Shown here: positions 13,104 to 39,644 of the stretch, piece by piece
Layout of the letters: each line of letters opens with the position of its first letter
Position numbering within the stretch: the stretch's first letter is position 1
Assembly: GCA_944383915.1 (NCBI GenBank)
Contig: CALWRJ010000013.1
Location: forward strand, 28,743-92,742
Source of the DNA: an uncultured Clostridia bacterium
GTDB lineage: Bacteria > Bacillota > Clostridia > Christensenellales > UBA1242
Reading direction: 5' to 3'
Length of the DNA stretch: 64,000 nt
The notes under the pieces: generated by a model
What the model saw: only the letters and a program-made list of their open reading frames with translations
Databases searched by the model: none
Told to the model about the DNA's origin: nothing
Program-made: the position numbers and the translations under genes

Positions 13104-13349
13104 TTATTTTTTTATATTCATTTCAATTTTTAACTTTTCTCTTTGCTCAATGTTATCAATTTCAAGCACTTCGTCACTGGCAACATCAAACAAAACACAA
13201 AGTTTTTGAAAAGCATCAAGGCTAGGTTCAGCACGCCCGCGCTCCCAATCACTTATAGTGTATATTTTAACATTTAAATAATCAGCAACTTGCTTTTGAG
13301 ACAAATTCGCTTCTTGTCTTAACCTTTTTAAATTTTCACCGAATTTCAT
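13104..13349 (-). CDS. Small XRE-family HTH regulator
   Basis: LKRLR...LSQKQVA...ISDWERGRAEP. Confidence 0.9.
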   Translation of the reverse strand: MKFGENLKRLRQEANLSQKQVADYLNVKIYTISDWERGRAEPSLDAFQKLCVLFDVASDEVLEIDNIEQREKLKIEMNIKK

Positions 13350-13468
13350 ACTCTTATTTTATACTAAAATAAAAATAAAAAAGGCGTTTTAGTAAAAATT
13401 ACTAAAAATAGTAAAATTTACTTGATTTTTTAAAAATATTTTGTTAAATTAATAATGATGTAGGGGAA

Positions 13469-13678
13469 TTACTCATCACCACCAAATAAATAATCAACCG
13501 AAACATCAAAGAATTGCGATAATTTGTAGATAACTTCAACATTAGGAGCGCGCAAACCTCTTTCCCAAAGCGAAACAGTATCTTGTGTAGTATTAAAATT
13601 TTTAGCGAATTCGTCTTGCGTGATATTTCTTTCTTTTCGCAGTTCTCGAATGCGCTTTCCCATAATTTCAACTATCAT
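13469..13678 (-). CDS. Small XRE-family HTH regulator
   Basis: RIRELR...TQDEFA...VSLWERGLRAP...FDVSVDYL; start probably 13678 (or 13663). Confidence 0.9.
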   Translation of the reverse strand: MIVEIMGKRIRELRKERNITQDEFAKNFNTTQDTVSLWERGLRAPNVEVIYKLSQFFDVSVDYLFGGDE

Positions 13679-13691
13679 AATATTATATTTT

Positions 13692-13765
13692 ATGATAAAT
13701 TGTCGTAAAATACTTGACATACGACAAAATGTACGGCTATAATTATAAAAACGACATATAGTCGT
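13692..13765 (+). promoter_or_regulatory. Divergent sigma-A promoter with three ACGAC-N5-GTCGT-like operators
   Basis: TTGACA 13714, TATAAT 13738; operators at 13692, 13721 and 13751. Confidence 0.75.
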
Positions 13766-13806
13766 TAAAAAATAGGGGTTTATCGTAAAATGTAATTATA
13801 TTCTAA

Positions 13807-14592
13807 AAATTTTTACTAAACAAAGAACACAATCAAGTTAACACTAACACAGACGGGAATGGTACTATTTCGGCGACTGCTAATTCGGTACAAAGTGGTG
13901 GTAGTGTTACAGTCACCGCAACACCAAATGCAAGTTATGAATTTGATTATTTTATAGTAAACAGCGGAAGTCCAATATATGAAAACCCGTACACCGTTGC
14001 AAACATCGCCCAAGACACCACAATAACTGCATATTTTAAATTAAAAGAATATACCATAACAATCACAACAAACGATAGAGTACTAGGCGAAGTTATGTAC
14101 AACAATACACTCACAAACGCAACTTCTCCAACAATAACGCTAACTCAAGTACACGGCACTAATATTACAAATATTTTCGCAATACCAAACGCAAATAGTG
14201 CTTTTCTATATTGGGAAATTAACAATGGCACGGTTACCACTAACATTGCAAACCCGCTAACACTCGAAAACATCACCGCAGACACCACAGTTACAGCAAT
14301 TTTTGCTAGCAATATTTCGGAAAATTTTTCAGTTGCATCAATAGGTGGTGGTGAAGCAAGAATTAACGGCTACACCGAAGGCGATAGTTATATACATTTA
14401 AGTGTATTTTGCTACACAGGATACACCTTCGCTGGTTGGTATTATGCCGATGCAGATACACCATTTAGCACGGATAAATCAATAGACCTAGACATTTCCA
14501 CCGCCGAAAGTAAACTTATAATTGCTCGTTTTGTGCCAACAAATTCAATCGCTAATGGCGAAACAGACACAGGTAATAGTGGAGTACTATAA
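13807..14592 (+). pseudogene. 5'-truncated InlB-B-repeat surface protein (C-terminal part only)
   Basis: Frame open from 13807 with no RBS or signal peptide; NTNTDGNGTISATA..VQSGGSVTVTA matches ~63870-64000; C-terminal domain resembles that of 39929-41728. Confidence 0.75.
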
Positions 14593-14619
14593 TTAAAAAA
14601 AATTCACATCACATTAAAA

Positions 14620-14648
14620 ATCTCACTTCAGACGAAGTGAGTTTTTTT
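14620..14648 (+). terminator. Terminator shared by the surface-protein family
   Basis: CTCACTTC-AGAC-GAAGTGAG followed by T7; similar to ~41836-41865. Confidence 0.8.
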
Positions 14649-14683
14649 AGAAATAAAGAATTAAACTGAGTAATACCTAAGTC

Positions 14684-14860
14684 CTAATTTTCCTGTTGTT
14701 CGTTAAGTTCGGCAGTTAATATGCGTTGTTTACATTTTAAATAGCGTTTTAAGTTGCGCGCAAGCCCTTTATTTCGCTTTACCAACAAAATTTGTTCGGC
14801 GCGTTCGATATCTTGGAGCATTTTGCTTATATTCTGCGCTTTCCTTCTTTCTTTTTTCAT
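14684..14860 (-). CDS. Small basic hypothetical protein (58 aa), below the ORF-track cutoff
   Basis: MKKERRKAQNISKMLQDIERAEQILL...NEQQEN*; weak RBS GAGTG. Confidence 0.45.
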   Translation of the reverse strand: MKKERRKAQNISKMLQDIERAEQILLVKRNKGLARNLKRYLKCKQRILTAELNEQQEN

Positions 14861-14917
14861 TTAAATCACTCTTTTTAATTAAATTTCATATAAAATTTAG
14901 ATTGAATGGGGGTAGTT

Positions 14918-15472
14918 ATGTTTTTTAATGATGAAAAATTACCTAGTGAAGATAGTATGCGCTTAATGCGTCAAGGTTATGCGCAAAAAGTAAAGACTTT
15001 GCAAAACGAAGGGGAAAAAACCGAAATGCCAAGTACAACACCGCCTACGACACCAACCACAACTAACGAAACCGATGACGAAAGACTTAATTTAATTGCC
15101 AGCAATATTGATTGGCAGACTAATACTCAATTGCTCAACAATTTGCTTTCGCGCACTCAAAATAGGTGTATGCGGTCTTTTATTCGTGGACTTATTCCTT
15201 TAAATGAGAGTGATAGGGACGAGATAAATTCTTTTTATACGAATAGCCGTGTGCGCCGAAACCCAAGCATTGTTTCAAATATGCCGAGTATGTTTAACCT
15301 TGCTTTGCGTGATTATATTCGTAACGAAAGCGAGTTGCTAGATGGCTTGGTGCAACTTTTGTATAATGAAAATGATGCAAACCGCAAGACTTCTATTTAT
15401 AATATTATACGGCGTAGGTTAGACGCGCTAGACACTTTGGCAAGTTTTTTGCAAAATGGATTTTTTGGTTAA
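14918..15472 (+). CDS. Hypothetical protein, probably late-sporulation/coat
   Basis: GGGGGT RBS; AC-N17-CATA SigK-like promoter at 14868-14890. Confidence 0.65.
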   Translation: MFFNDEKLPSEDSMRLMRQGYAQKVKTLQNEGEKTEMPSTTPPTTPTTTNETDDERLNLIASNIDWQTNTQLLNNLLSRTQNRCMRSFIRGLIPLNESDRDEINSFYTNSRVRRNPSIVSNMPSMFNLALRDYIRNESELLDGLVQLLYNENDANRKTSIYNIIRRRLDALDTLASFLQNGFFG

Positions 15473-15513
15473 ATTATTTTGTCTTTTTTGTGTAATGTGA
15501 TATAATTAATATT

Positions 15514-16830
15514 ATGAAATTAGAAATAGATAAAAGTTTAATTGATATTGCAAAGTTTTTTGCAAAAAATGGGGCAAAACTATATATAGTTGGCGGTTTT
15601 GTCCGCAATGCTATTTTAGGCTTTTGCGAAACTGATATTGATGTGTGCAGTAAATTGCTACCAGAATATATTACCAAAATGCTAACTAAAAACAAGTATG
15701 AAGTTAAGTTAATCAATAAAAAATTAGGGACTTTGCATATAAAAATTTTGTCGACAGGGCAAGAATACGAGCATACCACATTTAGAGCCGAACAATATAC
15801 GCAAGGTGGCGCTCATTCGCCTGAAAATGTGCGCTTTGTTGACGATATTCCGCTAGATGCGAGTCGCCGTGATTTTTCCGCAAACGCAATTTACTACGAT
15901 ATTTTAAGTGGCGAAATTATTGATTATTACAATGGCGTGCAAGATGTGGAAAATCATATTTTGCGAACAGTTGAGACTCCTGAATATGTTTTTGCGCGTG
16001 ATGGTTTGAGAATTTTAAGAATGGTGCGAATCTCGGCTGAACTTGGCTTTACTATTGACTTGCATACTTTTGAAGTTGCAAAACAAATGGCGGGGCAACT
16101 TGCAGACATTTCGCAAGAGCGATTTAATCACGAAATAGTCGCCATTTTGTTTGCTGATTATAAGTATGAGGCTATAAAAAATCCAAAAGCGCATATTGTG
16201 GGTTTAAAGCAAATCGGCGAACTCGGTGCTTGGGAATATGTGTTGCCAGAACTAACTGATTTGGTTGGTGTTGAGCGCGTTCGCGAGCTTTATAATAATT
16301 CTTGGATAAATTTGCTAGAATATGCACAGCCCGTTTTGAGAATACCTGCATTTGTTGCTGATATTTGCCGAAGTCTTGGGTTAAAAATGACGAAAAATCT
16401 AGTGTATTCGATTTTGGGAACGGGTGGCATAATGTTAAACAAAAATGAGTGCGCTAGGCAATATAAAATACTTAATGCATTTGAGCAAATTTTAGAAGGC
16501 GATGTTTTTTCAGACGAAAAGGCGCGTATTTTTATTCAAGTAATTAATGAATACGCTCGTGAAGTGTTTGGGCTTTGTGACTTGGCTAATATTGGGACAA
16601 GACTCAAAAAAACATATGCGCTTATGGAAATTGATGGTGTTCCGTTTAGTATCAAACAGTTGCATATTAATGGTTTCGATATAGCAGAATTTTATCCAGA
16701 AATCGAAAAAAGGCTTTATTCTCAAATTTTAAATAATTTGCTGCATACTTGCGCTATTATGCCAGAATTAAATAAAAAGGAATTATTAATAAAAGAAGTT
16801 GATACTATATATAAGGAATTAAAAAAGTAA
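15514..16830 (+). CDS. cca: CCA-adding enzyme / tRNA nucleotidyltransferase
   Basis: VGGFVRN, DID, TTFR, RRDFSANA, DGLRILR. Confidence 0.88.
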   Translation: MKLEIDKSLIDIAKFFAKNGAKLYIVGGFVRNAILGFCETDIDVCSKLLPEYITKMLTKNKYEVKLINKKLGTLHIKILSTGQEYEHTTFRAEQYTQGGAHSPENVRFVDDIPLDASRRDFSANAIYYDILSGEIIDYYNGVQDVENHILRTVETPEYVFARDGLRILRMVRISAELGFTIDLHTFEVAKQMAGQLADISQERFNHEIVAILFADYKYEAIKNPKAHIVGLKQIGELGAWEYVLPELTDLVGVERVRELYNNSWINLLEYAQPVLRIPAFVADICRSLGLKMTKNLVYSILGTGGIMLNKNECARQYKILNAFEQILEGDVFSDEKARIFIQVINEYAREVFGLCDLANIGTRLKKTYALMEIDGVPFSIKQLHINGFDIAEFYPEIEKRLYSQILNNLLHTCAIMPELNKKELLIKEVDTIYKELKK

Positions 16831-16957
16831 ACTTTATTAATATACCATTAAAAGTATCGAATTTTTGATATTTCAAGTATTTGTTTCCTTTCAATAATTC
16901 AAATAATAAAATATTTAAAAACAAAGCAAGTCTTAATAAAAAACTTGCTTTTTCTTT

Positions 16958-17197
16958 TTACCAAAGCCGAATTGTACCTTCAAACTTGATACAAAAACTA
17001 TTGTCTGGGCATTTTGGCTTTGGCGGTTTTGGTGGCGGACACGGACGCGTCCAACAATCATTTTGTTTTGGTGGATAACAGTAACCAAAGTCGTTATTAC
17101 ATTTTGGGCAATTTGGATTATTGTCACCGCAATTGCAAGGTTTTTGACCGCAATCATAGTATTTTAGAGTCCGCTTATAATCTTTAATACAGCACAT
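16958..17197 (-). CDS. Cys/Pro-rich small protein, probable spore coat/exosporium component
   Basis: AAGGAG RBS; many Cys, CPPPKPPKP; SigK-like promoter at 17249-17275. Confidence 0.65.
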   Translation of the reverse strand: MCCIKDYKRTLKYYDCGQKPCNCGDNNPNCPKCNNDFGYCYPPKQNDCWTRPCPPPKPPKPKCPDNSFCIKFEGTIRLW

Positions 17198-17374
17198 ATT
17201 TTACTCCTTTTAGCATAACAAGTTGTTATGTACCGCCCAGACATTATCAGTTTATGCAAAAGCATCTTATATGGTGAAAAAGTATAAATTTCGACTTTTA
17301 GCCAAAACTTAACTTAAATCGTTTGCAATAATTTTATCTTTTTTCTATAATATAAAAAGATATGGAGGTAAATA

Positions 17375-17734
17375 GTGGGGTATTTTGATTACTTAGACGA
17401 AGCAACCAAGGAACAGCGCGAATTTCAGTCCTTCGATGTTTGGGCAAAGGCGGGCACTTATGTTGGTTTAGGCTCATTGGTGGTAACAATTGTGGCAATA
17501 CTTATTTTTTGTCTAGTTATTCCATTAGGACAAAACATTTGGCTTGATTTTTTGGTTGGTGGGGCATTGGGAATAGGTATTACAGGTATTGTTTTTGCTG
17601 GTAAAGCCGTTAGTATGGCTCGAAGCATCCGTAAAAAAAGTGAAATAGGGCTATTCGCTCTTATTTGGGGAATATTTGTTATATTAATAGAATTGACCCT
17701 TTTATTAATAAATACTTGGATGTATTTAGCATAG
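17375..17734 (+). CDS. Hypothetical 3-TM membrane protein
   Basis: GGAGG RBS, GTG start, three hydrophobic helices. Confidence 0.75.
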   Translation: MGYFDYLDEATKEQREFQSFDVWAKAGTYVGLGSLVVTIVAILIFCLVIPLGQNIWLDFLVGGALGIGITGIVFAGKAVSMARSIRKKSEIGLFALIWGIFVILIELTLLLINTWMYLA

Positions 17735-17806
17735 ATTTTTATGCGTATTCATTTTACTTTTTGTAAAATTTGTGTTAGAATATTTATAAAATGCGAGGTA
17801 ACAGTT

Positions 17807-18115
17807 ATGCAACAATTTCTTTTTCCTGTAGTTTTATATAGAGATGTAGAAAATAGGGGATATACTATTGTTTTTCACGATTTGGATATTTGTACAGAAG
17901 GCGTTACTGTAGAGGACGCATTTTTAAGAGCAAAGGACTTTTTGGAAGTTTATTGTAGATGCGCTCTTGAGTACAATGGCGAAGTCGAACCTGCGACAAA
18001 ATTTGAGGAAGTCAAGACGGAGAATAAAAATATAGTTATGCTTGTCGATGCAGAAGTAAATGATAAGCAAGATAAGGCATCATATCCAAAGCAAAGATTT
18101 AGTTTTGATATATAG
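17807..18115 (+). CDS. HicB-like antitoxin domain protein (orphan)
   Basis: FP.V...GYTI.FHDL...TEG.TVEDA...A HicB N-terminal pattern; GAGGT RBS. Confidence 0.75.
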   Translation: MQQFLFPVVLYRDVENRGYTIVFHDLDICTEGVTVEDAFLRAKDFLEVYCRCALEYNGEVEPATKFEEVKTENKNIVMLVDAEVNDKQDKASYPKQRFSFDI

Positions 18116-18145
18116 TTTTTTGCTCATTAAGGAGGGCTTAAAAAT

Positions 18146-18931
18146 ATGATAGAAAAAACGTTTAGAAGCAAACAGGCCGTAGACCATATGAGTTATGCGT
18201 TCACTTGTGGATATTTTTTTGAAGATTTTACTCGTGGACGAAATATATACGGCAATCGTGCAAATTTAATAAGGCCAAAAGACCCTACAAAATTATTTAC
18301 AGAAGATTGCGAGTTTAAAAACAGCGATTTTCATACGATAGAAGGAATCAAACCTCTTGAAATAACACAAACAATTTTAATGACAAGGCAAAAGTTGGAA
18401 GCATTCTATACAGACAAAGAATGTATAAAAGATTTCTTGTCCAATTTTAAAACCGAGTTTTTAACAAGTGAGGACTTGGACAAAGTTGCTGAAAATTTCT
18501 ATGATAAAGTTGGTAAGAAATTATTAGCAAACAAAATAACTGATTTTAGAAAACTAGACAACTTTGTACTTGGAAGTATGGTGCTAGAATTTCCTATTAA
18601 TATAGTAAAGCATGTTGCGGAATTTCGTCACAGACAAGTTTTGACTCTTTTAACTCAAGACATAATAACCGCTGAAGATGCTCAACAGATGATTAAAATT
18701 TTACCTGATAACAAAGAAAATCTTATTGCTTTAAGGCAAAAATTAATAAAACAACGCGCTCAGGCTCAAGAGCAGAAGCGAATAGAAGCGCAGCAGCGGA
18801 CAGTCACAAAAGAAACAAAAGTTTATGATGATGATAGAAAGGAAATAGTTGCTATTTATCGCGCAATAAATAAGGATAAACAAGCAAGCCAGACTAATTA
18901 TTATGAAAAAGAAAAGGTTTCAGCATCTTAA
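18146..18931 (+). CDS. Orphan hypothetical protein with C-terminal coiled coil
   Basis: GGAGG RBS; 261 aa. Confidence 0.7.
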   Translation: MIEKTFRSKQAVDHMSYAFTCGYFFEDFTRGRNIYGNRANLIRPKDPTKLFTEDCEFKNSDFHTIEGIKPLEITQTILMTRQKLEAFYTDKECIKDFLSNFKTEFLTSEDLDKVAENFYDKVGKKLLANKITDFRKLDNFVLGSMVLEFPINIVKHVAEFRHRQVLTLLTQDIITAEDAQQMIKILPDNKENLIALRQKLIKQRAQAQEQKRIEAQQRTVTKETKVYDDDRKEIVAIYRAINKDKQASQTNYYEKEKVSAS

Positions 18932-19018
18932 AGTAAATTTAAGCAGACTTTATAACAAGTCTGCTTTTTGTATACTTTTCACACAAATGCGCAAAATATA
19001 ACAAAAGGGGTGTAATGT

Positions 19019-20395
19019 ATGCAAAAAAGCGCTTATTTAAGTCTTATCTTTTTTGTTTTTTCTTTGCTTATTTTTTGCTTATTTTTTTCTACACCTGTAT
19101 ATGCAACGAATGACAATGTTATAAGTATGCGCTTTTGCTATCAAGATAAAGTTTTTACTTATAACACTTCACACCTCGATAATATTAACAATTTTTATTT
19201 GCGCTCAATTGCTCAAAAGAATGGCAGACTCGGTTCGCCTCAAAAACGCGCTGATTTACTTGAACGAGTTTTAAAACTGGGCTTTACACCACAAGAGGCA
19301 ATTCAGTATGTTTTTAAAGGTTTAGAACAAGTTGTTTTAGATATGCAAAAGAGTATAGACTGTATTCCAGTTGATGCAGAAATGGAGTTTAAGCCAAACA
19401 CTTCACCTTACTTCTTTTTTAAAAAGGAAAAAATAGGTTTTAAACTAGATTTATATGATTTAGTGAATGAAATTATTGAAAATTTGCGAAAAAGTAATTC
19501 TTTTACGATTCAACTTAATCCAGAGCAACTAAATCCTAGTGTTTTTTATGATGATTTAAAAGATTATGCAAATTTACGCAGTTCCTTTTATACAAGTTTT
19601 AATGAGAAAAACTCAAATCGCAAACACAATATCGCGCTCGCAATAGGTAAATTTAATGGATTAAAAATCGAAGTAGGGCAAGAGTATTCATTTAATTCAA
19701 TAACTGGTCGCAGAACAGAACAAAATGGTTACTTACCAGCGAATATTATAGTTGATAAAAAATATGTAGAAGGCTACGGGGGCGGGGTGTGTCAAGCAAG
19801 CACAACTTTATATAATGCACTATTACTTGCTGGAAATGATTTCCGTGAAGTTCACAGCCATTCGCTTGTAAGTAGTTATGTAAATATGGGGTTTGACGCT
19901 ATGGTAAACTACGGCACTTCGGACTTGCGATGGATAAACAACACAAAAACGCCAATGTATGTGCGTACATATGTTAATGGTAATCGAGTAGGCGTGCAAG
20001 TTTATGGAAAGCCTGATGATAAAAATTATACATATAAGCGAGTAACTGAAATAGAACAAGAAATTGAACCGCCTGCCGATGAAATAATAATTGACAAAAC
20101 AGGAAAGTATTCCAATCTCGTAAATTATACCGATGAAAGTGCTTATATAGAAGCATCGCATAAAGGGTATAAAGTGCGTGCAATTTTAGAAAAATATGAT
20201 GGAGATAAATTAGTAGAAAAAAAATTTTTACGCCGAGTATCATATAACGCGACAAAAGGTGTAAAAGTCGTTGGAGCGAAAGAGCGCCCAGTAGAACCCG
20301 AGCCTATAAACGATAATCAGGAAATCGTTGATGATATTGGAGGTTCTTTAAGCGAGAGTACAATCGAATTTTGGAAAAAGTATATTTATTATTAA
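19019..20395 (+). CDS. VanW/YoaR-like protein
   Basis: NR..NI.LA...NG, YSFN..TG.R...GY, GGGVCQ.STTLYNA, HS. Confidence 0.9.
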   Translation: MQKSAYLSLIFFVFSLLIFCLFFSTPVYATNDNVISMRFCYQDKVFTYNTSHLDNINNFYLRSIAQKNGRLGSPQKRADLLERVLKLGFTPQEAIQYVFKGLEQVVLDMQKSIDCIPVDAEMEFKPNTSPYFFFKKEKIGFKLDLYDLVNEIIENLRKSNSFTIQLNPEQLNPSVFYDDLKDYANLRSSFYTSFNEKNSNRKHNIALAIGKFNGLKIEVGQEYSFNSITGRRTEQNGYLPANIIVDKKYVEGYGGGVCQASTTLYNALLLAGNDFREVHSHSLVSSYVNMGFDAMVNYGTSDLRWINNTKTPMYVRTYVNGNRVGVQVYGKPDDKNYTYKRVTEIEQEIEPPADEIIIDKTGKYSNLVNYTDESAYIEASHKGYKVRAILEKYDGDKLVEKKFLRRVSYNATKGVKVVGAKERPVEPEPINDNQEIVDDIGGSLSESTIEFWKKYIYY

Positions 20396-20481
20396 ATAAT
20401 GCCGAAAATTGTTAGACAAACAAAGTAAATATTTTGTATAATTAAGTAGATAATAGTTCAATATTTATAAAAGGTAAACTT

Positions 20482-21495: not shown

Positions 21496-21581
21496 TTTAT
21501 TTAATTTAAAAATGTTATAAATCATATTAAAAATTATAGTTAAAAAACATTTTTGAAATTTAATAAAATGGCTTAAATCTA

Positions 21582-21610: not shown

Positions 21611-21619
21611 ACAAATCGT

Positions 21620-28238: not shown

Positions 28239-28457
28239 TCATTCAAAACCGAAAAGGTCGTTTGGAGTAATACCTAAAAGTTCGCAAAGTTGCACAATTT
28301 GTTGATAATTTAATTCAAAAACACCATTTTCAAAGCGACTATATTGTTGCTGTGTCATTAGCATAACTTTTGCAACTTGCGCTTGAGTCATTTTTTTATC
28401 TTTGCGGGCTTCCTTCAATGCTTCGCCAACTGTTTTAGATATCGAGAAATTATTCAT
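28239..28457 (-). CDS. Small XRE-family HTH regulator
   Basis: LKEAR...MTQAQVA...QQQYSRFENG. Confidence 0.9.
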   Translation of the reverse strand: MNNFSISKTVGEALKEARKDKKMTQAQVAKVMLMTQQQYSRFENGVFELNYQQIVQLCELLGITPNDLFGFE

Positions 28458-28467
28458 AGTAAATTTT

Positions 28468-28520
28468 ATACCACAAACTGATGTAAAATACTTGACTTAC
28501 ATCACTTTATGATGTATAAT
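28468..28520 (+). promoter_or_regulatory. Divergent promoter with ACATCA-N5-TGATGT operators
   Basis: TTGACT-N17-TATAAT; perfect operator 28499-28515, imperfect 28468-28484. Confidence 0.75.
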
Positions 28521-28575: not shown

Positions 28576-29332
28576 ATGGAAGCAGAAAGTCAAAAAAATT
28601 TATCTACAAATATCATTTTTAAAATTTGTTTATCAGTTTTAGCAACAATTTTGTTAATTGCCTCAATGATAATTATGTTTAAAATTATAGACCTTTGTGG
28701 AATAGTGCAATCTTAATATTAATTTATACTCTAATACATCAGAAACTGCATATACTCCCATTGTTATTGCGGCTTTAGTTTTTAGCATTATTTTTTGGTT
28801 GTTAAGCATTATTTTGATTGTTTTCAGCATCACAACAATATTTAAAGAATTGCGTTCAAAATATTTTTGGACTATCGCTATAATAGTAGGTTTAGTATTT
28901 GTTGGTGTTATCTTACTTGATTTTAATGTACATTATAGTGATGTATTTAATGATTACACAAGTAGTGAATTAATGAATTCCTATTTACCATCACCAATAA
29001 GTATGTATCTTGACAATATTTATATGCCTAATATTCTTAACTCATTTTTAATGATATTTTTCTCATACTTAGCACTTGTAATTCAAACTTTAATTCCTTA
29101 TCAAATAAAAGCAAGCGAATCAAATAAAACTTTAGAAACTAAAACTATCGTATTGCCCGTAAATGAAATATACATAGAGCAACGCAAAGAAATTGAAGCC
29201 GAGATTGCAGAACAGAAACAAAAACAAAAATTATTTGAATTGCAAAACGAATTAAACCAACTCCGTAAGCAAAATGAGATATACTTAAACGATAATAATC
29301 AAAACAAACCAGAAAATGATGAACAAAAATAA
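28576..29332 (+). pseudogene. Frameshifted multi-TM membrane protein with C-terminal coiled coil
   Basis: AAGGA RBS and ATG 28576 stop at 28714-28716; continuation in another frame from ~28706 into ORF 28799-29332. Confidence 0.65.
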
Positions 29333-31912: not shown

Positions 31913-32085
31913 TTTTTCCCCTTTTGTAGCGCGTAAAAACACGCAAAATCAAATATAGTATATCACATTATTTTATTTTTAAAAAATGATTTGATATAAA
32001 ATTTAATTTATTGTTTTTGTTGGTATTGACGATTTTTATGTTTTGTGATATAATAAAATATATAACAAAAGAACGGAGTGAGAAA

Positions 32086-32496
32086 ATGTTTACAGAAAAA
32101 TTAGATAGGAAAGATTTAGAAAACTATGCAGAAAATGTTATTTGTGGACCTGCTTATGAAGTTTCAAGTCCAATAACTTGTGAAAAAATTTATGATAAAA
32201 CTGGTAAGTTAGACCGTATTGATTTGAGTTTTACTGCCGTTGGTTCATTAACTGATGACGAAAATTTAGTAAATACTTCTATTAGTGATTTTAAAACTAA
32301 CGATGACCATGTTCGATTTTTTGTAAATAAGTTTGGTTTAAGTTATGTGTTCGCTTATAAAAAATATCTAAAAACTCTTGATATTTCTCAAAACGAAAAA
32401 AAGATATTACAGCAGAAATGCACTTCGATGTATTGCTCAAATGTCTTTAAACCTAGTGACACTTGCCAAACTAAAATTGACGACTTTTCGAGATAA
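32086..32496 (+). CDS. Orphan hypothetical protein (MFTEKL...)
   Basis: GGAGTG RBS before ATG 32086. Confidence 0.7.
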   Translation: MFTEKLDRKDLENYAENVICGPAYEVSSPITCEKIYDKTGKLDRIDLSFTAVGSLTDDENLVNTSISDFKTNDDHVRFFVNKFGLSYVFAYKKYLKTLDISQNEKKILQQKCTSMYCSNVFKPSDTCQTKIDDFSR

Positions 32497-32671
32497 TTAA
32501 AACTTAATAAATCAAAGTTAGACTATATTAAAAATTCAAATTTTGCAAATACTTTTTATAATAATCTATTAAAAATAAACAACCGATTAGGTTGTTTTTT
32601 GCTTTTTAAAAGTTGCTATTATTTATATTATGTGATATAATAAACCTAAATTTTATTTAGGAGCAAGCAGA

Positions 32672-33868
32672 ATGCAGAATGTTTTTGACGAAATGAAAGA
32701 ACGCGGTCTTATTTACCAAACAATTAACGAAGACGAACTTCGCGAACTTTTAGGAAGGGAGAGAGTTGTTTGCTATTGCGGTTTCGACCCAACGGCTGAT
32801 AGTTTGCATGTTGGACACCTTGCTTCAATTTTACAATTAGTACGAATGCAAAAAGCAGGGCATACTCCTATTGCGTTAATTGGTGGCGCGACAGGCAGAA
32901 TCGGCGACCCAACAGGTAGAAATGATATGCGTCCTATGATTACACAAGAACAACGCGATGAAAATTTACGAAAAATCAAAGCGCAATTAGAGTCATTCTT
33001 TGACCCCAAAATGCCAAATAGGCTAATTGTCGTAAATAATGATGATTGGATAAGTAAGTTAGGGTATTTGGAATTTTTAAATATCGTAGGCTTAAATATG
33101 AGTGTAAACAAAATGTTAAGTTCTGGTTGCTTTGAGCAAAGAATGGAAAACGGTTTAAGTTTTCTAGAATTTAACTATATGCCAATGCAAGCATACGATT
33201 TTTGGTATCTTTTTAAAAATTATAATTGTAAAATTGAATTAGGCGGTAGTGACCAATGGGCAAATATTGTCGCTGGCGCTGACCTAATTCATAAAAGAGA
33301 AAATAAGCCTGTTTATTGTTTTACAACTCCACTTCTTACCAAATCTGATGGCACAAAAATGGGCAAGTCCGCTGGCGGTGCAGTTTGGTTATCTCGAGAA
33401 AAATACAGTGACTACGACTTTTTCCAATATTTTCGCGATATTGAGGATAGCAAAGTTGAGGAAATTTTCCGTGTGCTAACACTTTTACCATTAGACGAAA
33501 TAAAAGAGATTTGTTCTGTTAGTGGTAAAGAATTAAACAAAGCAAAAGAACGCCTTGCATACGAAGTTACAAAATTAGTACGCGGTGAGGAAAGCGCTCT
33601 GGAGGCTCTAAGTAAGGCGCGCGGTGCGTTTAATGGCGATTTAAACGAAATGCCCGAAGTCGAAATAGACAAAGCAAATTTAAATATTGTTGATTGTCTT
33701 GTTGCTATTAAGTTTGCCACATCGCGTGGTGACGCTAAAAAATTAATTTTAGGTGGTGGCGTCCGCGTAAATGATAGCGTGGTAAATAATATAGAGTTCA
33801 CTTGTCCAAATGAAACTTTTGTACTTAAAAAAGGTAAAAAGAATATAGTTAAGGTTAAAGTAAAATAA
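32672..33868 (+). CDS. tyrS: Tyrosine--tRNA ligase
   Basis: YCGFDPTADSLHVGH, GGSDQW, KMGKS, C-terminal S4 domain. Confidence 0.98.
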   Translation: MQNVFDEMKERGLIYQTINEDELRELLGRERVVCYCGFDPTADSLHVGHLASILQLVRMQKAGHTPIALIGGATGRIGDPTGRNDMRPMITQEQRDENLRKIKAQLESFFDPKMPNRLIVVNNDDWISKLGYLEFLNIVGLNMSVNKMLSSGCFEQRMENGLSFLEFNYMPMQAYDFWYLFKNYNCKIELGGSDQWANIVAGADLIHKRENKPVYCFTTPLLTKSDGTKMGKSAGGAVWLSREKYSDYDFFQYFRDIEDSKVEEIFRVLTLLPLDEIKEICSVSGKELNKAKERLAYEVTKLVRGEESALEALSKARGAFNGDLNEMPEVEIDKANLNIVDCLVAIKFATSRGDAKKLILGGGVRVNDSVVNNIEFTCPNETFVLKKGKKNIVKVKVK

Positions 33869-34458
33869 TGAAAGAGTTATTTTCAGTACCGCAAAATAAA
33901 ATATTTACAAGCGAGATTTTAATAAATAAATCTCGCTTTTTGGGTTTTTGTAAGTATGTAGATAACCAAGAAAAAGCAGATGATTTTATTAATAATATAA
34001 GGCAACAGCATAACGATGCTCGCCATGTAGTTTATGCGTATAAACTACTAAATTTGGCAAAAGTAAGTGATGATGGAGAACCATCAGGCACGGCAGGAAA
34101 ACCTATTTTAAATATATTAGAAATGAAAAATTTAACAAATATTATAATCTGCGTTGTTCGGTATTTTGGTGGCATAAAACTCGGTGCTGGGGGCTTGTTG
34201 CGAGCCTATTCAAATACTGCAAAAGAAATTTTTGAAGTCGCGCCTATTGTTAAATATGAGCCTTCTTTTGTTTATGAAATAATTCTTGATTATAGCGAAT
34301 ACCAGGTTTTTTTAAATAAGATAAAGGATAAAAAAGTTATTATTTTAGAAAGTGATTTTACTAATGGTGCTAAAATTAAATTTGTTGCTTCAACTGACGA
34401 AAATTTTACAAATGCAATAAAAATCGATGAAATTTTACAAAGTTATGAGGGTATATAA
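33868..34458 (+). CDS. yigZ: YigZ/IMPACT family protein
   Basis: SDDGEPSGTAG, VVRYFGGIKLGAGGL. Confidence 0.95.
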   Translation: MKELFSVPQNKIFTSEILINKSRFLGFCKYVDNQEKADDFINNIRQQHNDARHVVYAYKLLNLAKVSDDGEPSGTAGKPILNILEMKNLTNIIICVVRYFGGIKLGAGGLLRAYSNTAKEIFEVAPIVKYEPSFVYEIILDYSEYQVFLNKIKDKKVIILESDFTNGAKIKFVASTDENFTNAIKIDEILQSYEGI

Positions 34459-35087
34459 TGAGTGTAATTACAGACATTAAACAAGCAAAAGGGAATAAAA
34501 AGCGAGTCCACATTTATATTGATGATGAATTTGTTTGCTCCGTTGATGATTTTACCGCGTTTAAAAATAAACTGCACAAAGGCAGAGAGATAACAAAAGC
34601 AGAACTTGAAAATATCGTTACAGAAAGCGAACAAAATAGTGGTTTTGAACGCGTTGTTGATTTAATTTCTCGTACCCCAAAAACACAACATCAAGTGCGT
34701 ACTTATTTAAAAGAAAAAGGTTATATGCCAAAAACTATTAATGTTATTTTGGCAAAACTCCAAGATTATCATTATTTAGATGATAGGCGATATGCGGAAA
34801 TATATATTGAAAACAACATCAGTCGTTATGGTAAGCGCAAAATTATGCAAAATTTGCTTATGCGTGGAGTAGATAAAGATTTAATAAACGAGTGCTTGGC
34901 TGATTATGATAACCAAGACGAAACAGTTTTAAACTTTGCTTTAAAGTTTATGAAAAACCGAGAACCAACACGCGAAAATTTTGATAAACTTTGTCGCCAT
35001 CTTGCAGGAAAAGGCTTTGATTGGAGCGAAATTAGTCTAGTAATTTCAAAATTAAAAGAAGGGAATTTAGATGAAAGTTGGGATTGA
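34458..35087 (+). CDS. recX: Regulatory protein RecX
   Basis: YLDD..YA, G..KI...L...GV, L..KGF. Confidence 0.88.
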   Translation: MSVITDIKQAKGNKKRVHIYIDDEFVCSVDDFTAFKNKLHKGREITKAELENIVTESEQNSGFERVVDLISRTPKTQHQVRTYLKEKGYMPKTINVILAKLQDYHYLDDRRYAEIYIENNISRYGKRKIMQNLLMRGVDKDLINECLADYDNQDETVLNFALKFMKNREPTRENFDKLCRHLAGKGFDWSEISLVISKLKEGNLDESWD

Positions 35088-35442
35088 TATTGTAAAAGTT
35101 GAACGATTTTTAGACAAAATCAACGATGGCAAGTTTTTATCAAGAGTTTTTACTCATGCCGAGCGCGAGCATATAAAAGAAATTTCAACACCACAAGGGC
35201 AGGCGGAAAGAATGGCAGGTAAATTTTGCGCAAAAGAAGCCGTTTCTAAAATGTTTGGTACGGGGATAGATAAAGGTATAACATGGCTTGATATTGAAAT
35301 TTTACCCGATAGTCTAGGCAAACCTTGTTTAAATTTAAAAGGTACAGCAAAAAAAATGGCGGAAAGTTTAAAACTTAAAAATATAGATATCAGCATATCG
35401 CACACAGATAAAGACGCTATTGCTATTTGCGTTGCAATGTGA
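35071..35442 (+). CDS. acpS: Holo-ACP synthase
   Basis: GIDIV, F.AKEA.SK..GTG, ISISH. Confidence 0.95.
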   Translation: MKVGIDIVKVERFLDKINDGKFLSRVFTHAEREHIKEISTPQGQAERMAGKFCAKEAVSKMFGTGIDKGITWLDIEILPDSLGKPCLNLKGTAKKMAESLKLKNIDISISHTDKDAIAICVAM

Positions 35443-35545
35443 TTTTAACGAATAAAAAAATATTAAATACAAAACATATCTTTGAAAAATCCTAAATTTT
35501 AAAAATTTTAGGTATATTTAATATGTTAAAAGGGATAAATTAATT

Positions 35546-35722
35546 ATGCAAGACAAAAAGTATTCAGTCGAATTGTCAAAATTAATAAGACACAAAAATT
35601 ACCATTCTAAACATATATTGAAAAAGGAAGATTATCGCGACTTCAAAGGTTTTAGTGAATGGGAAATTTGGGGTGATTGTGATGATTTAACCGAGTATGA
35701 AAATTGGTTAAAGGAGCTTTAA
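35546..35722 (+). CDS. Small acidic-tailed ORF (58 aa), putative MazE/NdoAI-type antitoxin
   Basis: AAGGGA RBS; MQDKKYS...DDLTEYENWLKEL*; ends 3 nt before mazF. Confidence 0.6.
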   Translation: MQDKKYSVELSKLIRHKNYHSKHILKKEDYRDFKGFSEWEIWGDCDDLTEYENWLKEL

Positions 35723-35725
35723 AAC

Positions 35726-36070
35726 TTGGATACAATCAAACGAGGCGACATTTATTATGCAAATTTATCACCAGTAGTAGGTAGCGAACAGGGCGGAGTG
35801 CGCCCCGTTTTGATTGTGCAAAACGATGTAGGTAACCGTTATAGCCCAACAGTTATTGTGGCGGCGATTACAAGTAAAATAAACAAAGCCAAATTGCCTA
35901 CGCATATTGAGTTAAATGCTCATACATATGGTCTAGAACGCGACAGCGTGGTCTTGTTAGAACAAATTCGTACGCTCGACAAAGCGCGTTTATTAGAAAA
36001 AATAGGCACTGCGGACCGAAATACCCTAAAAAATATCGATGATGCTTTGGTTATTAGTCTAGGATTGTAA
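35726..36070 (+). CDS. mazF: MazF/PemK (NdoA/EndoA) endoribonuclease toxin
   Basis: [42 protein letters not shown]. Confidence 0.96.
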
Positions 36071-36075
36071 ATTTG

Positions 36076-36099
36076 CGCCTAAAATTTCAGGCGTTTTTT
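36076..36099 (+). terminator. Terminator after mazF
   Basis: CGCCT...AGGCG followed by T6. Confidence 0.65.
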
Positions 36100-36243
36100 C
36101 TTTAAAATTTGTTAAAAATTTTTTAAAATAAGCCTTTAATATATATTTTCATTGTTTTTACAAGTTGCATATTGACAAATTTAGAATTTTAATGTATAAT
36201 ATTCGTAATACTACTAGATGAATAAATAGAGAGGTAATTTATT

Positions 36244-39216
36244 ATGAAATGGCTTAATAGATTCTTAATCTTTTTGCTTATCGTCATCGTATGTATTAGT
36301 ATAGGCTTATCCATTTACTACTTTATGCGTAATACTGAGGTATTTAGTTTTGGTAATGGTGAAAATGCCCTTACTAAATATGTTAATGTTGGCGAAACAT
36401 TTGAAGTCACAGTTACACGACAAAATGCTTCAAGTGAGGAGTATTCTCTTGTAACTATGGATGAAAATGTTGTAAGAGCACTTGATCCCGCATATTACGA
36501 GGATGACAACGAAACAATCGTTTGGAGATTTGAAGCAGTTAGTGGCGGAAACACAACTTTACAACTTCAAACTACAAATGAAGGTTACAAAGACCTACAA
36601 GTTGCTGTTTATGTAGGTGATGGTACAGTTGAGCACCCGTTCTATGTTCGTGATTACTTAGATTTAAGTACAATTGGACAAAATGACGCTGTTGACGGCA
36701 GAACTCTTTCAGCACACTATCAACAAGTTGCTGATATTGATATGAGTGTTGCAGAATCTGCTTGGACTCCAATCGGTACAAATTCAAGCACAGGCTTTAC
36801 AGGCTCATACAATGGTAACGGTCACACTATTTCTAACTTAATATTGTTAAAGAGTGGCTCGACTTATGCTAACGAAAGCACTATGTTTGTAAGTGACACT
36901 CTTGAAAGAGCTGGGTTGTTTGCTACAATCGGTAATGGTGGTGTAGTATCAAAACTTAACTTAACTAGTGTGATTATTGATGGTGCTTACAGTTACGCTG
37001 GTGCTGTCGCTGGTGTAGTTAATGGTCAGGTTAACTTTGTGAATGTTTCAAACTCAACTATTAGCAACTCAAGCACACAAAATGGAGCAACAGTCGGCGG
37101 TATTGTTGGTTCGGTTATTGCTTCGAGTACGAATACTACACAATTTATAGCACGCATTCAATACTCGTCAGTATCAAATTCTACTATCATAGGACAAAAC
37201 TATGTTGGTGGTCTTGCTGGTAGTACTCAAGGTGCGTTCGTGTTCAATTCGTATGTAACAGGTAATATCACAGCAAATGGTGATAGTTCAATTGCTGGTG
37301 GTTTAATCGGTCTTGTAAATAATGTTCAAAATGAGAATAACATTTACAGAAATGCCATTGTAAACAACTATGCGGTTTTAAGTTCTATCACTTCAAATGG
37401 TGAATTTGGTTACTTAATAGGTAGCAATACAAACTACGGCGCTGAAACAAATGTTGTTTTAAGACCAAGTAGCGAAGACGAAACTGTAAGTTCGTACAAT
37501 AGAATTTTAGGTAACTTCTACCGCGCAACTGATGGTTATACTGCAATCGCTGGTCAAGCCGATGTAACGGACGCTTACCTTGCATTCCCAGTAAGCGATG
37601 AAGTTTTAAAACAAAGACCAACGCAGGAAAGAATTGATGCAATCATTTCAAGTGGTGCAGTTGACGCTAGCCTTGCCTTTGTAGGCTACAGCACAATAGG
37701 TCAATTCACTGGTTGGAACTTTGAGCAAGTTTGGACAATTGATTCTACAGTAAATAACGGTTATCCAACAATCAAAGTAGATGCAGTTCCTACAGCAGAT
37801 TCAATATATGATGAGTTTGATAGAATAATTATCTCTGCTGAAGATGCTTTGAAACGAGAAATTCAAAACGATATAGCTGATGATGGCGAGTTAAATAACA
37901 ATTACTTCATCAATGAAAGCATTTGTTTAACAGGCGAATGGACGCCAATTGGTACTGCAGAAATGCCATTCAATGGTCAATTTGTGGTAATTCCTGACAG
38001 CAACGGCAATATGCCAGTTATATACAACCTTGTAATAAGTACTGACAGAGCGTACAATGGTTTCTTTGGATATGTTGGTAGCAACGGACTTATTCAAGAT
38101 TTGACAATTGAAGGTGTAAACATCTCTGCTGGTCAATATATCGGTGTAATTGCTGGTTACAATAACGGCACTATTAGTGGTGCAACAGTTCGTTCTAATG
38201 CTGATACAAACTTTGTAGGAATTAATGTTGATAAAGACGGCGATGTTTATGTTGGTGGTATCGTTGGTAGCAACTACTCAAACGGTAACATTTTAAATAG
38301 CACTGCTACATTAAATATTAGAGTAACGGCAAATACGGCTTCTATCGGTGGTGTGGCTGGACAAAACTTAGGAAACATTAACAACGCAAGTTATAATGGA
38401 CTTCAAGCGAACGGTAACTACTCATACAGAATTGATGTTATGAACAAAAACGGAAACACTAAATATGTAGGTGGTATTGTTGGTGATATGTCTAGCGGAA
38501 CAATCACAAAAGGCAACTTCACTGGTTTAATTAGCGCACCTACTATTGATGGTACAATCGTTGGTGGTATCGTTGGTAGATACAGCGGAAGCATTGCTAA
38601 TACTCAACCTACTATTACAAAATGCGCTGCAACTGATATAAACATCACTGGTTACTTAATCGGTGGTCTTGTTGGTAGACTTGATGTAGCGTCAAGTGTG
38701 GGAATTGTAAATAACATTTCGCAATCATACTCAACAGGTTCTGTTTATGGATATAGAGTAGGTGGTCTTGCTGGTGAAATCTCACGCGGTAGTATCATAA
38801 ATAGTTACTCAAACTGCTTCCTTAGTGGTAACATTATGGGTGGTTTTGCTGGTAGTATCTTATACCGCAACTCAAGTGAATATGGACGCGTTGCTTACTG
38901 CTTCTCAAATGTATCATTTGACAATTCAGCAGGTAAGGCTTATGCAGAAACAGAATCAGAAATCTACGCTTTAAACAACATATTTGATGCTGGCTCTAAA
39001 GTTGGTGGCTATGTAGAAAACTGTATTCTAAATTCACAAAGCGGTGGCGCTCGTCACTCAAGTTCATACCTATTCATAATCGACTGGAAAGCACCAGACG
39101 ATGGCTGGAGAAGTGATGGAGATTGCAAGAATATCGACACATTCACAAACCGTGGTTTCGATAGTTCTATTTGGAACTTCGTTAGCGGTCAATACCCAAC
39201 ACTAAATATGAACTAA
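36244..39216 (+). CDS. Large surface protein with GLUG-type beta-helical repeats
   Basis: N-terminal TM; two WTPIG..F.G modules, repeated VGGIVG, W.....GYPT caps. Confidence 0.85.
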   Translation: MKWLNRFLIFLLIVIVCISIGLSIYYFMRNTEVFSFGNGENALTKYVNVGETFEVTVTRQNASSEEYSLVTMDENVVRALDPAYYEDDNETIVWRFEAVSGGNTTLQLQTTNEGYKDLQVAVYVGDGTVEHPFYVRDYLDLSTIGQNDAVDGRTLSAHYQQVADIDMSVAESAWTPIGTNSSTGFTGSYNGNGHTISNLILLKSGSTYANESTMFVSDTLERAGLFATIGNGGVVSKLNLTSVIIDGAYSYAGAVAGVVNGQVNFVNVSNSTISNSSTQNGATVGGIVGSVIASSTNTTQFIARIQYSSVSNSTIIGQNYVGGLAGSTQGAFVFNSYVTGNITANGDSSIAGGLIGLVNNVQNENNIYRNAIVNNYAVLSSITSNGEFGYLIGSNTNYGAETNVVLRPSSEDETVSSYNRILGNFYRATDGYTAIAGQADVTDAYLAFPVSDEVLKQRPTQERIDAIISSGAVDASLAFVGYSTIGQFTGWNFEQVWTIDSTVNNGYPTIKVDAVPTADSIYDEFDRIIISAEDALKREIQNDIADDGELNNNYFINESICLTGEWTPIGTAEMPFNGQFVVIPDSNGNMPVIYNLVISTDRAYNGFFGYVGSNGLIQDLTIEGVNISAGQYIGVIAGYNNGTISGATVRSNADTNFVGINVDKDGDVYVGGIVGSNYSNGNILNSTATLNIRVTANTASIGGVAGQNLGNINNASYNGLQANGNYSYRIDVMNKNGNTKYVGGIVGDMSSGTITKGNFTGLISAPTIDGTIVGGIVGRYSGSIANTQPTITKCAATDINITGYLIGGLVGRLDVASSVGIVNNISQSYSTGSVYGYRVGGLAGEISRGSIINSYSNCFLSGNIMGGFAGSILYRNSSEYGRVAYCFSNVSFDNSAGKAYAETESEIYALNNIFDAGSKVGGYVENCILNSQSGGARHSSSYLFIIDWKAPDDGWRSDGDCKNIDTFTNRGFDSSIWNFVSGQYPTLNMN

Positions 39217-39222
39217 TCAAAT

Positions 39223-39259
39223 AAAAAAGCATACCAAGTATTTTCTTGGTATGTTTTTT
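39223..39259 (+). terminator. Intrinsic terminator
   Basis: CATACCAAG...CTTGGTATG followed by a T run. Confidence 0.8.
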
Positions 39260-39380
39260 GTTTTTGGTTAAAGTAATTTATTATTAAAAATTGTTTTTAT
39301 TCAGTATACAAATAGATTTCAAATCAATTCTCTTTTTCTCAAAATAAAAAAAATGTGTAAAGTGTACACATTTTTTTCAA

Positions 39381-39581
39381 TTAATCATTTCCAAGTAAAT
39401 AATCAATACTTTCGTCTAACGCTTGTGCAATTAAAATTAAAACATCGAGAGAAGGCTCTCGTTTTCCTGTGCAATAGTTATTAACAATACTTTGAGACAT
39501 TCCAATTTTATTAGCAAGTTCTAATTGTGTCATTCCATTCTCATCTAAAACATCTCTCAATCTTTCCGCAAATTTATTCAT
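39381..39581 (-). CDS. Small XRE-family HTH regulator
   Basis: FAERLR...MTQLELA...NNYCTGKREP...SIDYLLG. Confidence 0.9.
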   Translation of the reverse strand: MNKFAERLRDVLDENGMTQLELANKIGMSQSIVNNYCTGKREPSLDVLILIAQALDESIDYLLGND

Positions 39582-39607
39582 AAATAAATTATATTAAATT
39601 CTTTCTT

Positions 39608-39644
39608 AAAATAGTTGACATATGGCTATTAGCCATAGTATACT
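39608..39644 (+). promoter_or_regulatory. Divergent promoter whose spacer is the palindrome TATGGCTA-T-TAGCCATA
   Basis: TTGACA 39615, TATACT 39639, perfect 17-bp palindrome 39621-39637. Confidence 0.8.

Follow-up and report, generated by a model that had tools for sequence, protein, structure and literature searches.

The stretch of DNA analysed here (64,000 nucleotides, called the window below) is C13:28743-92742 of the source genome G000, the very small genome of an uncultured gut bacterium of the Clostridia (1.18 Mb in 23 contigs, ~97% complete, ~33% G+C), with ~1,100 genes and few regulators. The window belongs to the core chromosome, with rplS, cca, rpsL-rpsG-fusA-tuf, an ABC-F gene, tyrS, recX, acpS and mazF (Pfam). 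It also holds four very short genes for XRE-family helix-turn-helix (HTH) regulators (mini-XREs; XRE#1 to XRE#4, Table 1), which a first-pass annotation of the sequence had described as cI-like switches, each with its own operator on a divergent promoter. C-numbers denote contigs of G000, while G002, G003, G008 and so on are other genomes that were compared, and L-numbers are individual fetched loci.

All four genes lie on the minus strand, and the Cro/C1-type domain HTH_3 (PF01381) is the sole Pfam domain of each product, at 50.0-63.0 bits against a curated cut-off of 23; Pfam finds neither a C-terminal oligomerization domain nor an S24 peptidase domain on these 64-81 amino acid (aa) proteins. 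They are thus HTH-only as first described, but the length range given then (66-81 aa) does not cover the 64-aa form of XRE#2, which would have 69 aa if it starts at ATG 13678. The longer form begins MIVEIMG, a start kept in the G003 orthologue (L024), and fits the 26-nucleotide (nt) spacing between ATG and promoter scaffold (see below) that is typical of the family. The recognition helices differ among the four exactly as had been read. A structure was modelled for XRE#4 among the four proteins (AlphaFold2, predicted local distance difference test 96.1); the model has five helices (residues 4-15, 19-26, 30-38, 45-55 and 59-63). Foldseek matched it to P22 c2, 434 Cro, C.AhdI, SinR-N, ImmR-N, DdrO-N and CylR2 with template-modelling (TM) scores of 0.79-0.89, and of 0.83-0.89 for P22 c2, 434 Cro, SinR-N and ImmR-N, while a sequence search of the PDB gave weak generic XRE matches only (ImmR N-domain, HipB, PezA).

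Three of the genes (XRE#2, XRE#3 and XRE#4) diverge from a plus-strand promoter that begins in a shared 12-mer, AAAATASTTGAC, which we call the scaffold. Four copies of this word exist in the whole genome, both strands considered, and all four diverge from a mini-XRE, the fourth being at C10:109695. The plus-strand promoters agree with consensus at 12 of 12 positions for XRE#2 (13714-13743) and at 11 of 12 for XRE#3 (28492-28520) and XRE#4 (39615-39644), and each is the best promoter match of its region, in keeping with the common divergent layout first reported for these three genes. The promoter facing the neighbouring gene (the cargo) is near consensus (TTGACa-17/18-TATAAT), while that of the XRE has a poor -35 box; the -35 regions of the two abut or overlap, and the predicted transcription starts would be ~70 bp apart. 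Divergent back-to-back promoters with overlapping operators, as predicted here, are present in the window cassettes, and the layout is kept in relatives.

The XRE genes also share a distinctive start region. None of the four is preceded by a Shine-Dalgarno-like word, as the first-pass annotation had it. The -10-like hexamer that it placed just before each ATG is found outright for three: TAnnnT ends 6-8 nt before the ATG of XRE#1 (TATAAA/TAAAAT at 6-8 nt), XRE#3 (TGgTATAAA at 7 nt) and XRE#4 (TATAAT, minus strand, 39588-39593, 6 nt from ATG), while XRE#2 follows the same rule only if it starts at ATG 13678. Genome-wide, a -10 box at 5-9 nt with no Shine-Dalgarno word precedes 10 of 20 short XREs versus 58 of 720 long open reading frames (ORFs), and TATAAT stands ~6 nt before the ATG in most XRE#4-type orthologues inspected (by eye, uncounted). 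Because the -10 box ends 6-8 nt before the ATG, the XRE mRNAs would be leaderless, as is that of lambda cI transcribed from PRM.

Each cassette carries candidate operators of its own. The palindrome of XRE#4, TATGGCTA-T-TAGCCATA, and the perfect operator of XRE#3, ACATCA-N5-TGATGT, lie inside the promoter spacer, and a weak left operator of XRE#3 (ATACCA-N5-TGATGT, 28468-28484) covers the XRE's own -10 box. At XRE#2, the half-sites TTGTCGTA and TACGACAA surround the -35 region, and ACGAC-N5-GTCGT (13751-13765) follows 7 nt downstream of the -10 box. The original description, a different palindrome in each of the three spacers, is therefore accurate for XRE#3 and XRE#4, but not for the ACGAC palindrome at 13.7 kb, which follows the -10 box. 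Likewise, the TTACTA-N4-TAGTAA noted at 13399 for XRE#1 is present (13399-13414), but is the junction of two adjacent TAGTAA-N3-TTACTA palindromes. In all, the window has one operator for XRE#4, one perfect and one weak for XRE#3, one palindrome plus two half-sites for XRE#2 and two for XRE#1.

These sites are rare in the genome. TAGTAA-N3-TTACTA occurs once, and the same palindrome stands beside the XRE#1 orthologue of G002; the ACGAC palindrome of XRE#2 and ATGGCT-N3-AGCCAT of XRE#4 have one copy each. The XRE#3 operator has two, the second of which (C20:5330) lies inside a coding frame and was treated as chance, as were two loose matches to the XRE#4-type operator (C10:146760 and C10:146946), which belong to a repeat linked to a tRNA, the 1.2 kb around them being free of XRE genes. 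TATGGCTATTAGCCATA and the ACGAC palindrome had been flagged as terminator-like; we rejected that reading, because both are located within a promoter or immediately behind one, neither has a proper run of T, and both track the XRE helix type across genomes.

Table 1. Positions of the four mini-XRE genes, their control regions and the genes they face, numbered from the first nucleotide of the window.
Feature	Position	Strand	Description
XRE#1	13104-13349	-	81 aa, helix IYTISDW; HTH_3 E=7e-15; distal member of tandem XRE pair
XRE#1 candidate operators	13390-13404 + 13409-13422		adjacent palindromes, half-site TAGTAA, then degenerate scaffold copy
XRE#2	13469-13663 (64 aa) or to ATG 13678 (69 aa)	-	helix QDTVSLW; HTH_3 E=2.6e-17
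XRE#2 control region	13699-13765	+	half-site 13699-13706, scaffold 13707-13718, -35 13714-13719, half-site 13720-13727, -10 13738-13743
XRE#2 cargo	13807-14592	+	open frame, Flg_new_2/Flg_new repeats (Pfam on 14095-14592); no start codon before 14095
XRE#3	28239-28457	-	72 aa, helix QQQYSRF; HTH_3 E=3.1e-13
XRE#3 control region	28468-28520	+	scaffold 28485-28496, operator 28499-28515, -10 box 28515-28520
XRE#3 cargo	28576-29332	+	46-aa membrane ORF 28576-28716, then hydrophobic frame in other phase (TTG ORF 28799-29332)
XRE#4	39381-39581	-	66 aa, helix QSIVNNY; HTH_3 E=3.2e-17
XRE#4 control region	39588-39644	+	scaffold 39608-39619, -35 39615-39620, 17-bp palindrome 39621-39637, -10 39639-39644
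XRE#4 5' leader block	39672-39768	+	~100 nt, conserved with two paralogous loci (alignment); GAACA-N3-TGTTC 39676-39688, then TTGACT
XRE#4 cargo	39929-41728	+	599-aa surface protein: N-terminal anchor, BspA-type LRR_5, Flg_new_2

Comparison across genomes ties these palindromes to the proteins beside them. When ~115 loci were sorted by helix 3, at least nine classes emerged, whose distinct palindromes recur in 2 to ~40 loci per class, drawn from different genomes, and each helix type keeps its palindrome across species and genera. At the sequence level, the operators are thus private, as had been proposed, every class having its own palindrome that is unique or nearly unique in the genome. The first-pass annotation had also suggested looking for covariation between palindrome and helix 3, and it is seen in the 51 XRE#4-type loci, where the residue after MSQ tracks one operator base: loci with glycine (MSQG) have C at the variable operator position in 78 of 92 half-sites and loci with serine (MSQS) have T in 24 of 32. 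Taking the majority within each locus, glycine goes with C in 22 cases and with T in none (2 ties), and serine with T in eight and with C in one (4 ties). Furthermore, the central operator arms agree in 29 of 37 XRE#4-type sites, and in an XRE#3 variant (L138) the two arms differ in concert with each other and with two helix residues. Such joint change of helix and operator arms would be predicted for a protein that reads its site as a dimer.

The four cassettes are members of a family, as initially supposed. Elsewhere in G000, the same architecture with other palindromes occurs at C10:109748, C16:4305, C15:25062, C5:59944 and C21:8885. Across 16 genomes of the genus, the 12-mer has 47 copies versus 18 for a reversed control; among the 40 of these 47 sites that were fetched (nine species), 13 have a divergent mini-XRE, all 13 of which pass Pfam HTH_3, with the ATG 26-27 nt from the 12-mer in 11. 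The scaffold layout also occurs at dozens of loci in other genera, the related loci coming from metagenome-assembled genomes (MAGs) of uncultured Clostridia, Christensenella-like bacteria or Bacillota from animal and human guts. G003 has orthologues of XRE#2, XRE#3 and XRE#4 with the same operators (that of XRE#2 keeps both the half-sites and the ACGAC-N5-GTCGT after the -10 box), and G002 has an orthologue of XRE#1 (L016) that faces an N-terminally anchored surface protein. XRE#3-type proteins (E<=1e-10) were found in 12 of 121 sampled family genomes, G000 included, and the TACATCA-N5-TGATGTA layout at seven of 13 XRE#3-type places; L025, L133, L134, L135, L137 and L140 keep it, and the seven include L138 with its altered arms. 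The genes faced by XRE#3-type cassettes vary among genera and encode a membrane protein, a Zn-ribbon membrane protein, a lipoprotein or a long secreted protein.

A fuller form of the module is seen among the 51 related loci of XRE#4 type, which carry an NNYC helix. Many have three operators, ~11, 40 and 67 nt from the ATG. The one nearest the ATG covers the XRE -10 box, the next falls within the spacer of the opposite promoter, and the farthest lies past that promoter's -10 box. The first divergent gene encodes a Cro-like HTH protein of 63-79 aa in at least 28 of the 51 loci (by regular expression; ~35 by eye) and a long protein with an N-terminal hydrophobic segment in five (three with a lipoprotein-type signal). 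Two of the Cro-like proteins were examined with Pfam; L087 passes HTH_3 and HTH_26, and L054 has no match. No Cro-like divergent partner stands beside the four window XREs. The statement that the modules have no Cro, sensor or peptidase domain therefore holds in the window, but not for the Cro-like partner in at least 28 of these relatives. On these comparisons, the module appears to be a chromosomal, phage-like CI/Cro cassette, of which the window copies would be cut-down forms that have one or two operators and lack the Cro-like partner. Calling the modules cI-like is well founded, given the five-helix Cro/C1 fold, the leaderless layout, the back-to-back promoters and the relatives with three operators and a Cro-like partner.

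Two further G000 loci belong to this picture. One (L009, C4:27134-28236), at a contig end, is the sole complete pair of XRE and Cro-like gene in the genome; the Cro-like protein (60 aa) has sub-threshold HTH_26 and HTH_3 matches, and after it comes a 155-aa protein in which the ~70 N-terminal residues form an HTH_3 domain. The other (L008, C5:59872-60108) is a mini-XRE with the operator TGCTCA-N5-TGAGCA in the spacer of its divergent promoter, directly after a 413-aa ORF whose N-terminus resembles a Y-family (DinB-type) polymerase; the promoter would read antisense into that ORF.

The association with surface genes extends beyond the window. Matches to the N-terminal anchor of the XRE#4 cargo delimit a family of BspA/Flg_new paralogues, with 16 places in G000, eight in G003 and nine in G008, and the G003 orthologue of XRE#4 faces the same family. 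We examined 32 of these 33 places, dropping C13:91041, which has a 70-aa open frame only. An XRE lies ~130-560 nt upstream of 16 of the 32 surface genes (six in G000, 8/8 in G003 and 2/9 in G008), and all 16 are divergent, none co-oriented. The helices of these XREs are all different except in one orthologous pair, and tandem XRE pairs like XRE#2/XRE#1 occur at three of the loci. The idea that the XREs control a variable surface repertoire accordingly finds agreement in half of this paralogous family, across three species, and none in the other half.

Several observations concern other members of the surface family. The place dropped above lies in the window itself (~62299-62412, C13:91041-91154), where the 70-aa frame matches the anchor and may be a truncated member. 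At L004 (C16:99608-99772), the mini-XRE divergent from the surface gene C16:99297 has no in-frame upstream ATG, GTG or TTG, so either it uses a non-canonical start or the gene is dead. Four G000 surface-family genes share a conserved leader with a small ORF (MLKTQISPSQN...) that crosses a poly-G tract of 9 (L169, C9:~18.3 kb), 10 (L154, C9:~34.6 kb), 12 (L157, C23:~1.5 kb) or 11 (L005, C1:~11.0 kb) residues. The leader ORF is open up to the surface-gene start with 10 G and to the contig end with 11 G, and stops just past the tract with 9 or 12 G. The arrangement is a candidate case of slipped-strand phase variation, which would act by translational coupling.

Within the window, XRE#4 alone of the four faces an intact surface gene. 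Judging from three-frame translation, the cargo of XRE#2 is probably a 5'-truncated surface-protein gene and that of XRE#3 probably one frame-shifted membrane-protein gene, whose ORFs have no Pfam or PHROG match; XRE#1 has nothing opposite it but the 3' end of XRE#2, from which a degenerate scaffold copy separates it. The neighbours of the modules are rplS, the Flg_new fragment, the ABC-F gene, membrane ORFs, a Glug-domain protein and the LRR_5 surface protein. This much agrees with the earlier account of the cargo as surface or membrane genes rather than phage genes, which is right in that phage genes are absent and the XRE#4 cargo is intact, but which had taken no account of decay in two of the three cargos or of XRE#1 having none.

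We propose, as the probable explanation, that the cassettes are compact, chromosomal and domesticated CI-like repressor modules, each of which would silence its near-consensus promoter through a dimer bound to a palindrome of its own, the repressor being translated from an mRNA without a leader. DNA binding, dimerization, repression, leaderless starts and relief of repression are all inferred here from sequence and layout. The mini-XRE would be translated from a leaderless mRNA made at a weak promoter, whose -10 box lies 6-8 nt before the ATG, while the opposite near-consensus promoter would drive the cargo gene. The HTH-only protein would bind its palindrome, in the cargo-promoter spacer or just past the -10 box, as a dimer and exclude RNA polymerase from the cargo promoter; where a second operator covers the XRE -10 box, the XRE would limit its own synthesis. 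As different helices would read different palindromes, each cassette should act on its own neighbour only. That neighbour is in this genus usually a membrane-anchored or secreted protein, above all of the BspA/Flg_new family, and in other genera often a small Cro-like HTH protein.

Several findings weigh against this proposal. Of 329 TTGAC-N-TAnnnT sites in the genome, 33 have a perfect inverted repeat of at least 6 bp in their spacer, so that any single palindrome might have arisen by chance and is weak evidence when taken alone; the case made here is built on conservation and covariation rather than on palindromes by themselves. The covariation counts come from related genomes and overstate the number of independent events. 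Among the 40 fetched 12-mer sites in relatives, 27 have no mini-XRE, and the 12-mer is not universal, C16:4305, C15:25062 and many loci in other genera using variants. No XRE was found in the upstream DNA examined for the other 16 of the 32 surface-family genes (up to 1.5 kb, and 132 and 562 nt in two cases), nor was a sensor domain or anti-repressor found for the mini-XREs. Two of the three window cargos look broken, and at XRE#1 the opposite promoter is degenerate and there is no cargo; some cassettes may therefore be decaying. Finally, the XRE#4 promoter is ~285 nt from its gene, and the intervening leader holds a conserved element, so that another promoter or regulator may dominate there. 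Taken together, the first-pass observations are largely right and their interpretation is partly supported.

Could the modules instead be decayed immunity regions of lost prophages, either leftovers with no host role or orphan repressors that give immunity to phage? In favour are the architecture, which is that of a phage CI/Cro region and in relatives extends to a Cro-like partner and three operators, the matches of the XREs to the phage regulator PHROGs 8, 3 and 4, and the two broken window cargos. However, the surroundings of the window modules contain no phage or integrase genes: unannotated ORFs adjoining them match no structural or integration PHROG, and the only non-XRE PHROG matches beside them are a HicB-like antitoxin family and one family of unassigned function. 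Nor is there a phage or integrase protein among 38 flanking proteins at 12 related loci, where the flanks include TatD, PPDK, RNase J, GMP synthase, EF-G, RpoC, RadA and IspDF. Repressor and operator are conserved across genera beside housekeeping genes. The XRE#4 helix is absent from the 80 best viral-contig relatives in IMG/VR (identity <=50%), and divergent pairing with surface-family genes, always in the same orientation, recurs at half of the places examined. Ordinary prophage remnants, which the first-pass annotation had named as the case that would overturn it, thus find no support here, and we regard this explanation as unlikely.

A one-repressor bistable switch is another explanation, in which the two promoters compete for overlapping -35 DNA and repression of the cargo promoter feeds the XRE positively, giving heritable ON and OFF states without Cro. 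The spacing and overlap of the two promoters described above would suit such competition, as would their unequal strength, and the poly-G tracts that open or close a leader ORF in other surface-family paralogues are also in line with it. Overlapping divergent promoters with an XRE repressor have been reported, as in pLS20 (PMC4207663). The argument is one of structure, however, and left operators over the XRE -10 box, where present, imply negative autoregulation. We give the switch only a small chance of being correct.

It is also conceivable that the mini-XREs regulate nothing but themselves, the plus-strand promoters and the linkage to cargo being incidental to AT-rich intergenic DNA. Promoter-like matches are no commoner in the three regions than in shuffled sequence, and palindromes are common in AT-rich spacers. 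On the other hand, the three plus-strand sites match consensus at 11-12 of 12 positions and are the top matches of their regions, the 12-mer is exclusive to these loci in G000, 11 of 13 loci have it at a constant distance from the ATG, and in relatives a perfect operator lies in or after the cargo promoter. Autoregulation alone is accordingly very improbable. That the XREs are type II antitoxins or restriction-modification controller (C) proteins, for which one can cite MqsA_antitoxin matches that are weak and below the Pfam cut-off, sequence matches to HipB, closest folds that include C.AhdI and C.BclI, and leaderless translation of C proteins (PMC2175313), can be set aside as having next to no likelihood, as the genes around them are either housekeeping ones or divergent ones for surface or membrane proteins, and no toxin gene that is co-oriented and adjacent (Pfam, PHROG) and no adjoining restriction endonuclease or methyltransferase gene (Pfam) was found at the window XREs.

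Comparison with known systems places the repressor-module reading in context. Lambdoid and Gram-positive phage immunity regions (lambda cI-PRM/PR-cro, 434, P22 c2) share with the cassettes a five-helix HTH protein, back-to-back promoters, palindromic operators over promoter elements, a repressor mRNA that is or would be leaderless and, in relatives of the window modules, up to three operators and a Cro-like divergent partner. Unlike them, the cassettes lie outside prophages, have a bare DNA-binding domain as their repressor, face a host surface or membrane gene in this genus rather than lytic genes, and are present in one 1.2-Mb genome as at least 7-10 non-cross-matching copies. CylR2 of Enterococcus faecalis, a 66-aa HTH-only protein, and SinR/SlrR of Bacillus subtilis are small non-phage XRE repressors that act on promoter inverted repeats of secreted or surface-related genes. 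Foldseek matched their structures (PDB 2xiu, 3qq6, 3zkc) to the XRE#4 model. CylR2 and SinR are single systems with known partners or signals (CylR1, SinI/SlrR), whereas the cassettes form a multi-copy set with private operators.

Other parallels come from published accounts. Three operators between divergent genes are described for cI/cro of the Staphylococcus aureus phage phi11 (PMC3991615, PMC10491246). Rco of pLS20 (PMC4207663) resembles the mini-XREs as an XRE-family repressor acting on its own weak promoter and an overlapping strong divergent one, but it controls conjugation genes, loops the DNA between operator sets that lie far apart and is countered by an anti-repressor of its own, none of which is seen in the cassettes. 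C.AhdI, C.BclI and C.PvuII are of similar size (~70-80 aa) and have the same fold (TM 0.85-0.86; PDB 1y7y, 2b5a), palindromic boxes and leaderless transcripts (PMC2175313). C proteins are, however, co-transcribed with a nuclease gene and are mainly activator-repressors, while the cassettes have no restriction-modification genes and their target is divergent. In Caulobacter, phage-homologous paralogous XRE factors regulate the holdfast adhesin, but these converge on shared targets in one pathway (PMC10688885), whereas each cassette has a different operator and surface gene. No description of a mini-XRE cassette family was found in the open-access literature searched.

If the cassettes work as proposed, a bacterium with ~1,100 genes would control a large surface family gene by gene, which would bear on how uncultured gut commensals vary their display to host and phage. 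Dozens of natural, tiny repressor-operator pairs on a common promoter scaffold would make an HTH recognition code testable (the covariation of glycine with C and of serine with T being an entry point) and would supply synthetic circuits in Gram-positive hosts with orthogonal parts that are ready to use. Should they be merely ordinary local repressors, they would still be a useful annotation of a widespread family that is undescribed in the literature searched. A more far-reaching possibility is an individually addressable surface coat, with a one-protein epigenetic switch per adhesin-like gene, driven by rivalry of the overlapping promoters and heritable without DNA change, other genes of the family being toggled by poly-G slippage in a coupled leader ORF, and with the cassettes forming an orthogonal library of 65-80-aa repressors that has a residue-to-base code; we find this doubtful.

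The leader of the XRE#4 cargo has features of its own. Its conserved block is nearly identical upstream of three surface genes; besides the window, the G000 positions that go with this block and its palindrome are C15:25373, C16:4732 and C1:10752 (L148, L172 and L005). The repeat TTTCTACAA within these leaders was considered as a specific site and rejected, having 44 genome copies versus 49 for a control word; of its occurrences, only those in tandem are limited to these leaders. A second sigma-70 promoter was sought in the block, where TTGACT is present, but there is no -10 box at 16-18 nt and the promoter scan found none. Rfam, at gathering thresholds, identified two tRNAs only in the whole window, and hence no known RNA family in the leaders. 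GAACA-N3-TGTTC has four copies in the genome, three in the surface-gene leaders and one upstream of the XRE at C1:10522 (helix SERTVSYWENG), and XREs with SERTVSYWENG-type helices in other MAGs (L108, L109, L111 and L118) have GGAACA..TGTTCT operators; from these sequence matches, one XRE may act in trans on several surface genes through this site.

The related word GAACA-N2-TGTTC, mostly in the form CGAACAAATGTTCTAAAAT, occurs at seven G000 sites (C2:8225, C2:11495, C10:133905, C22:252, C23:22786, C23:40774 and C23:41127), which resemble LexA (SOS) boxes of the Gram-positive type. Lastly, two loci in the window have the look of ordinary toxin-antitoxin genes: a PemK/MazF-like toxin gene (35726-36070) that is closely preceded by a 58-aa ORF (region 35546-36070), and a gene for a protein with a HicB-like antitoxin domain (17741-18115).

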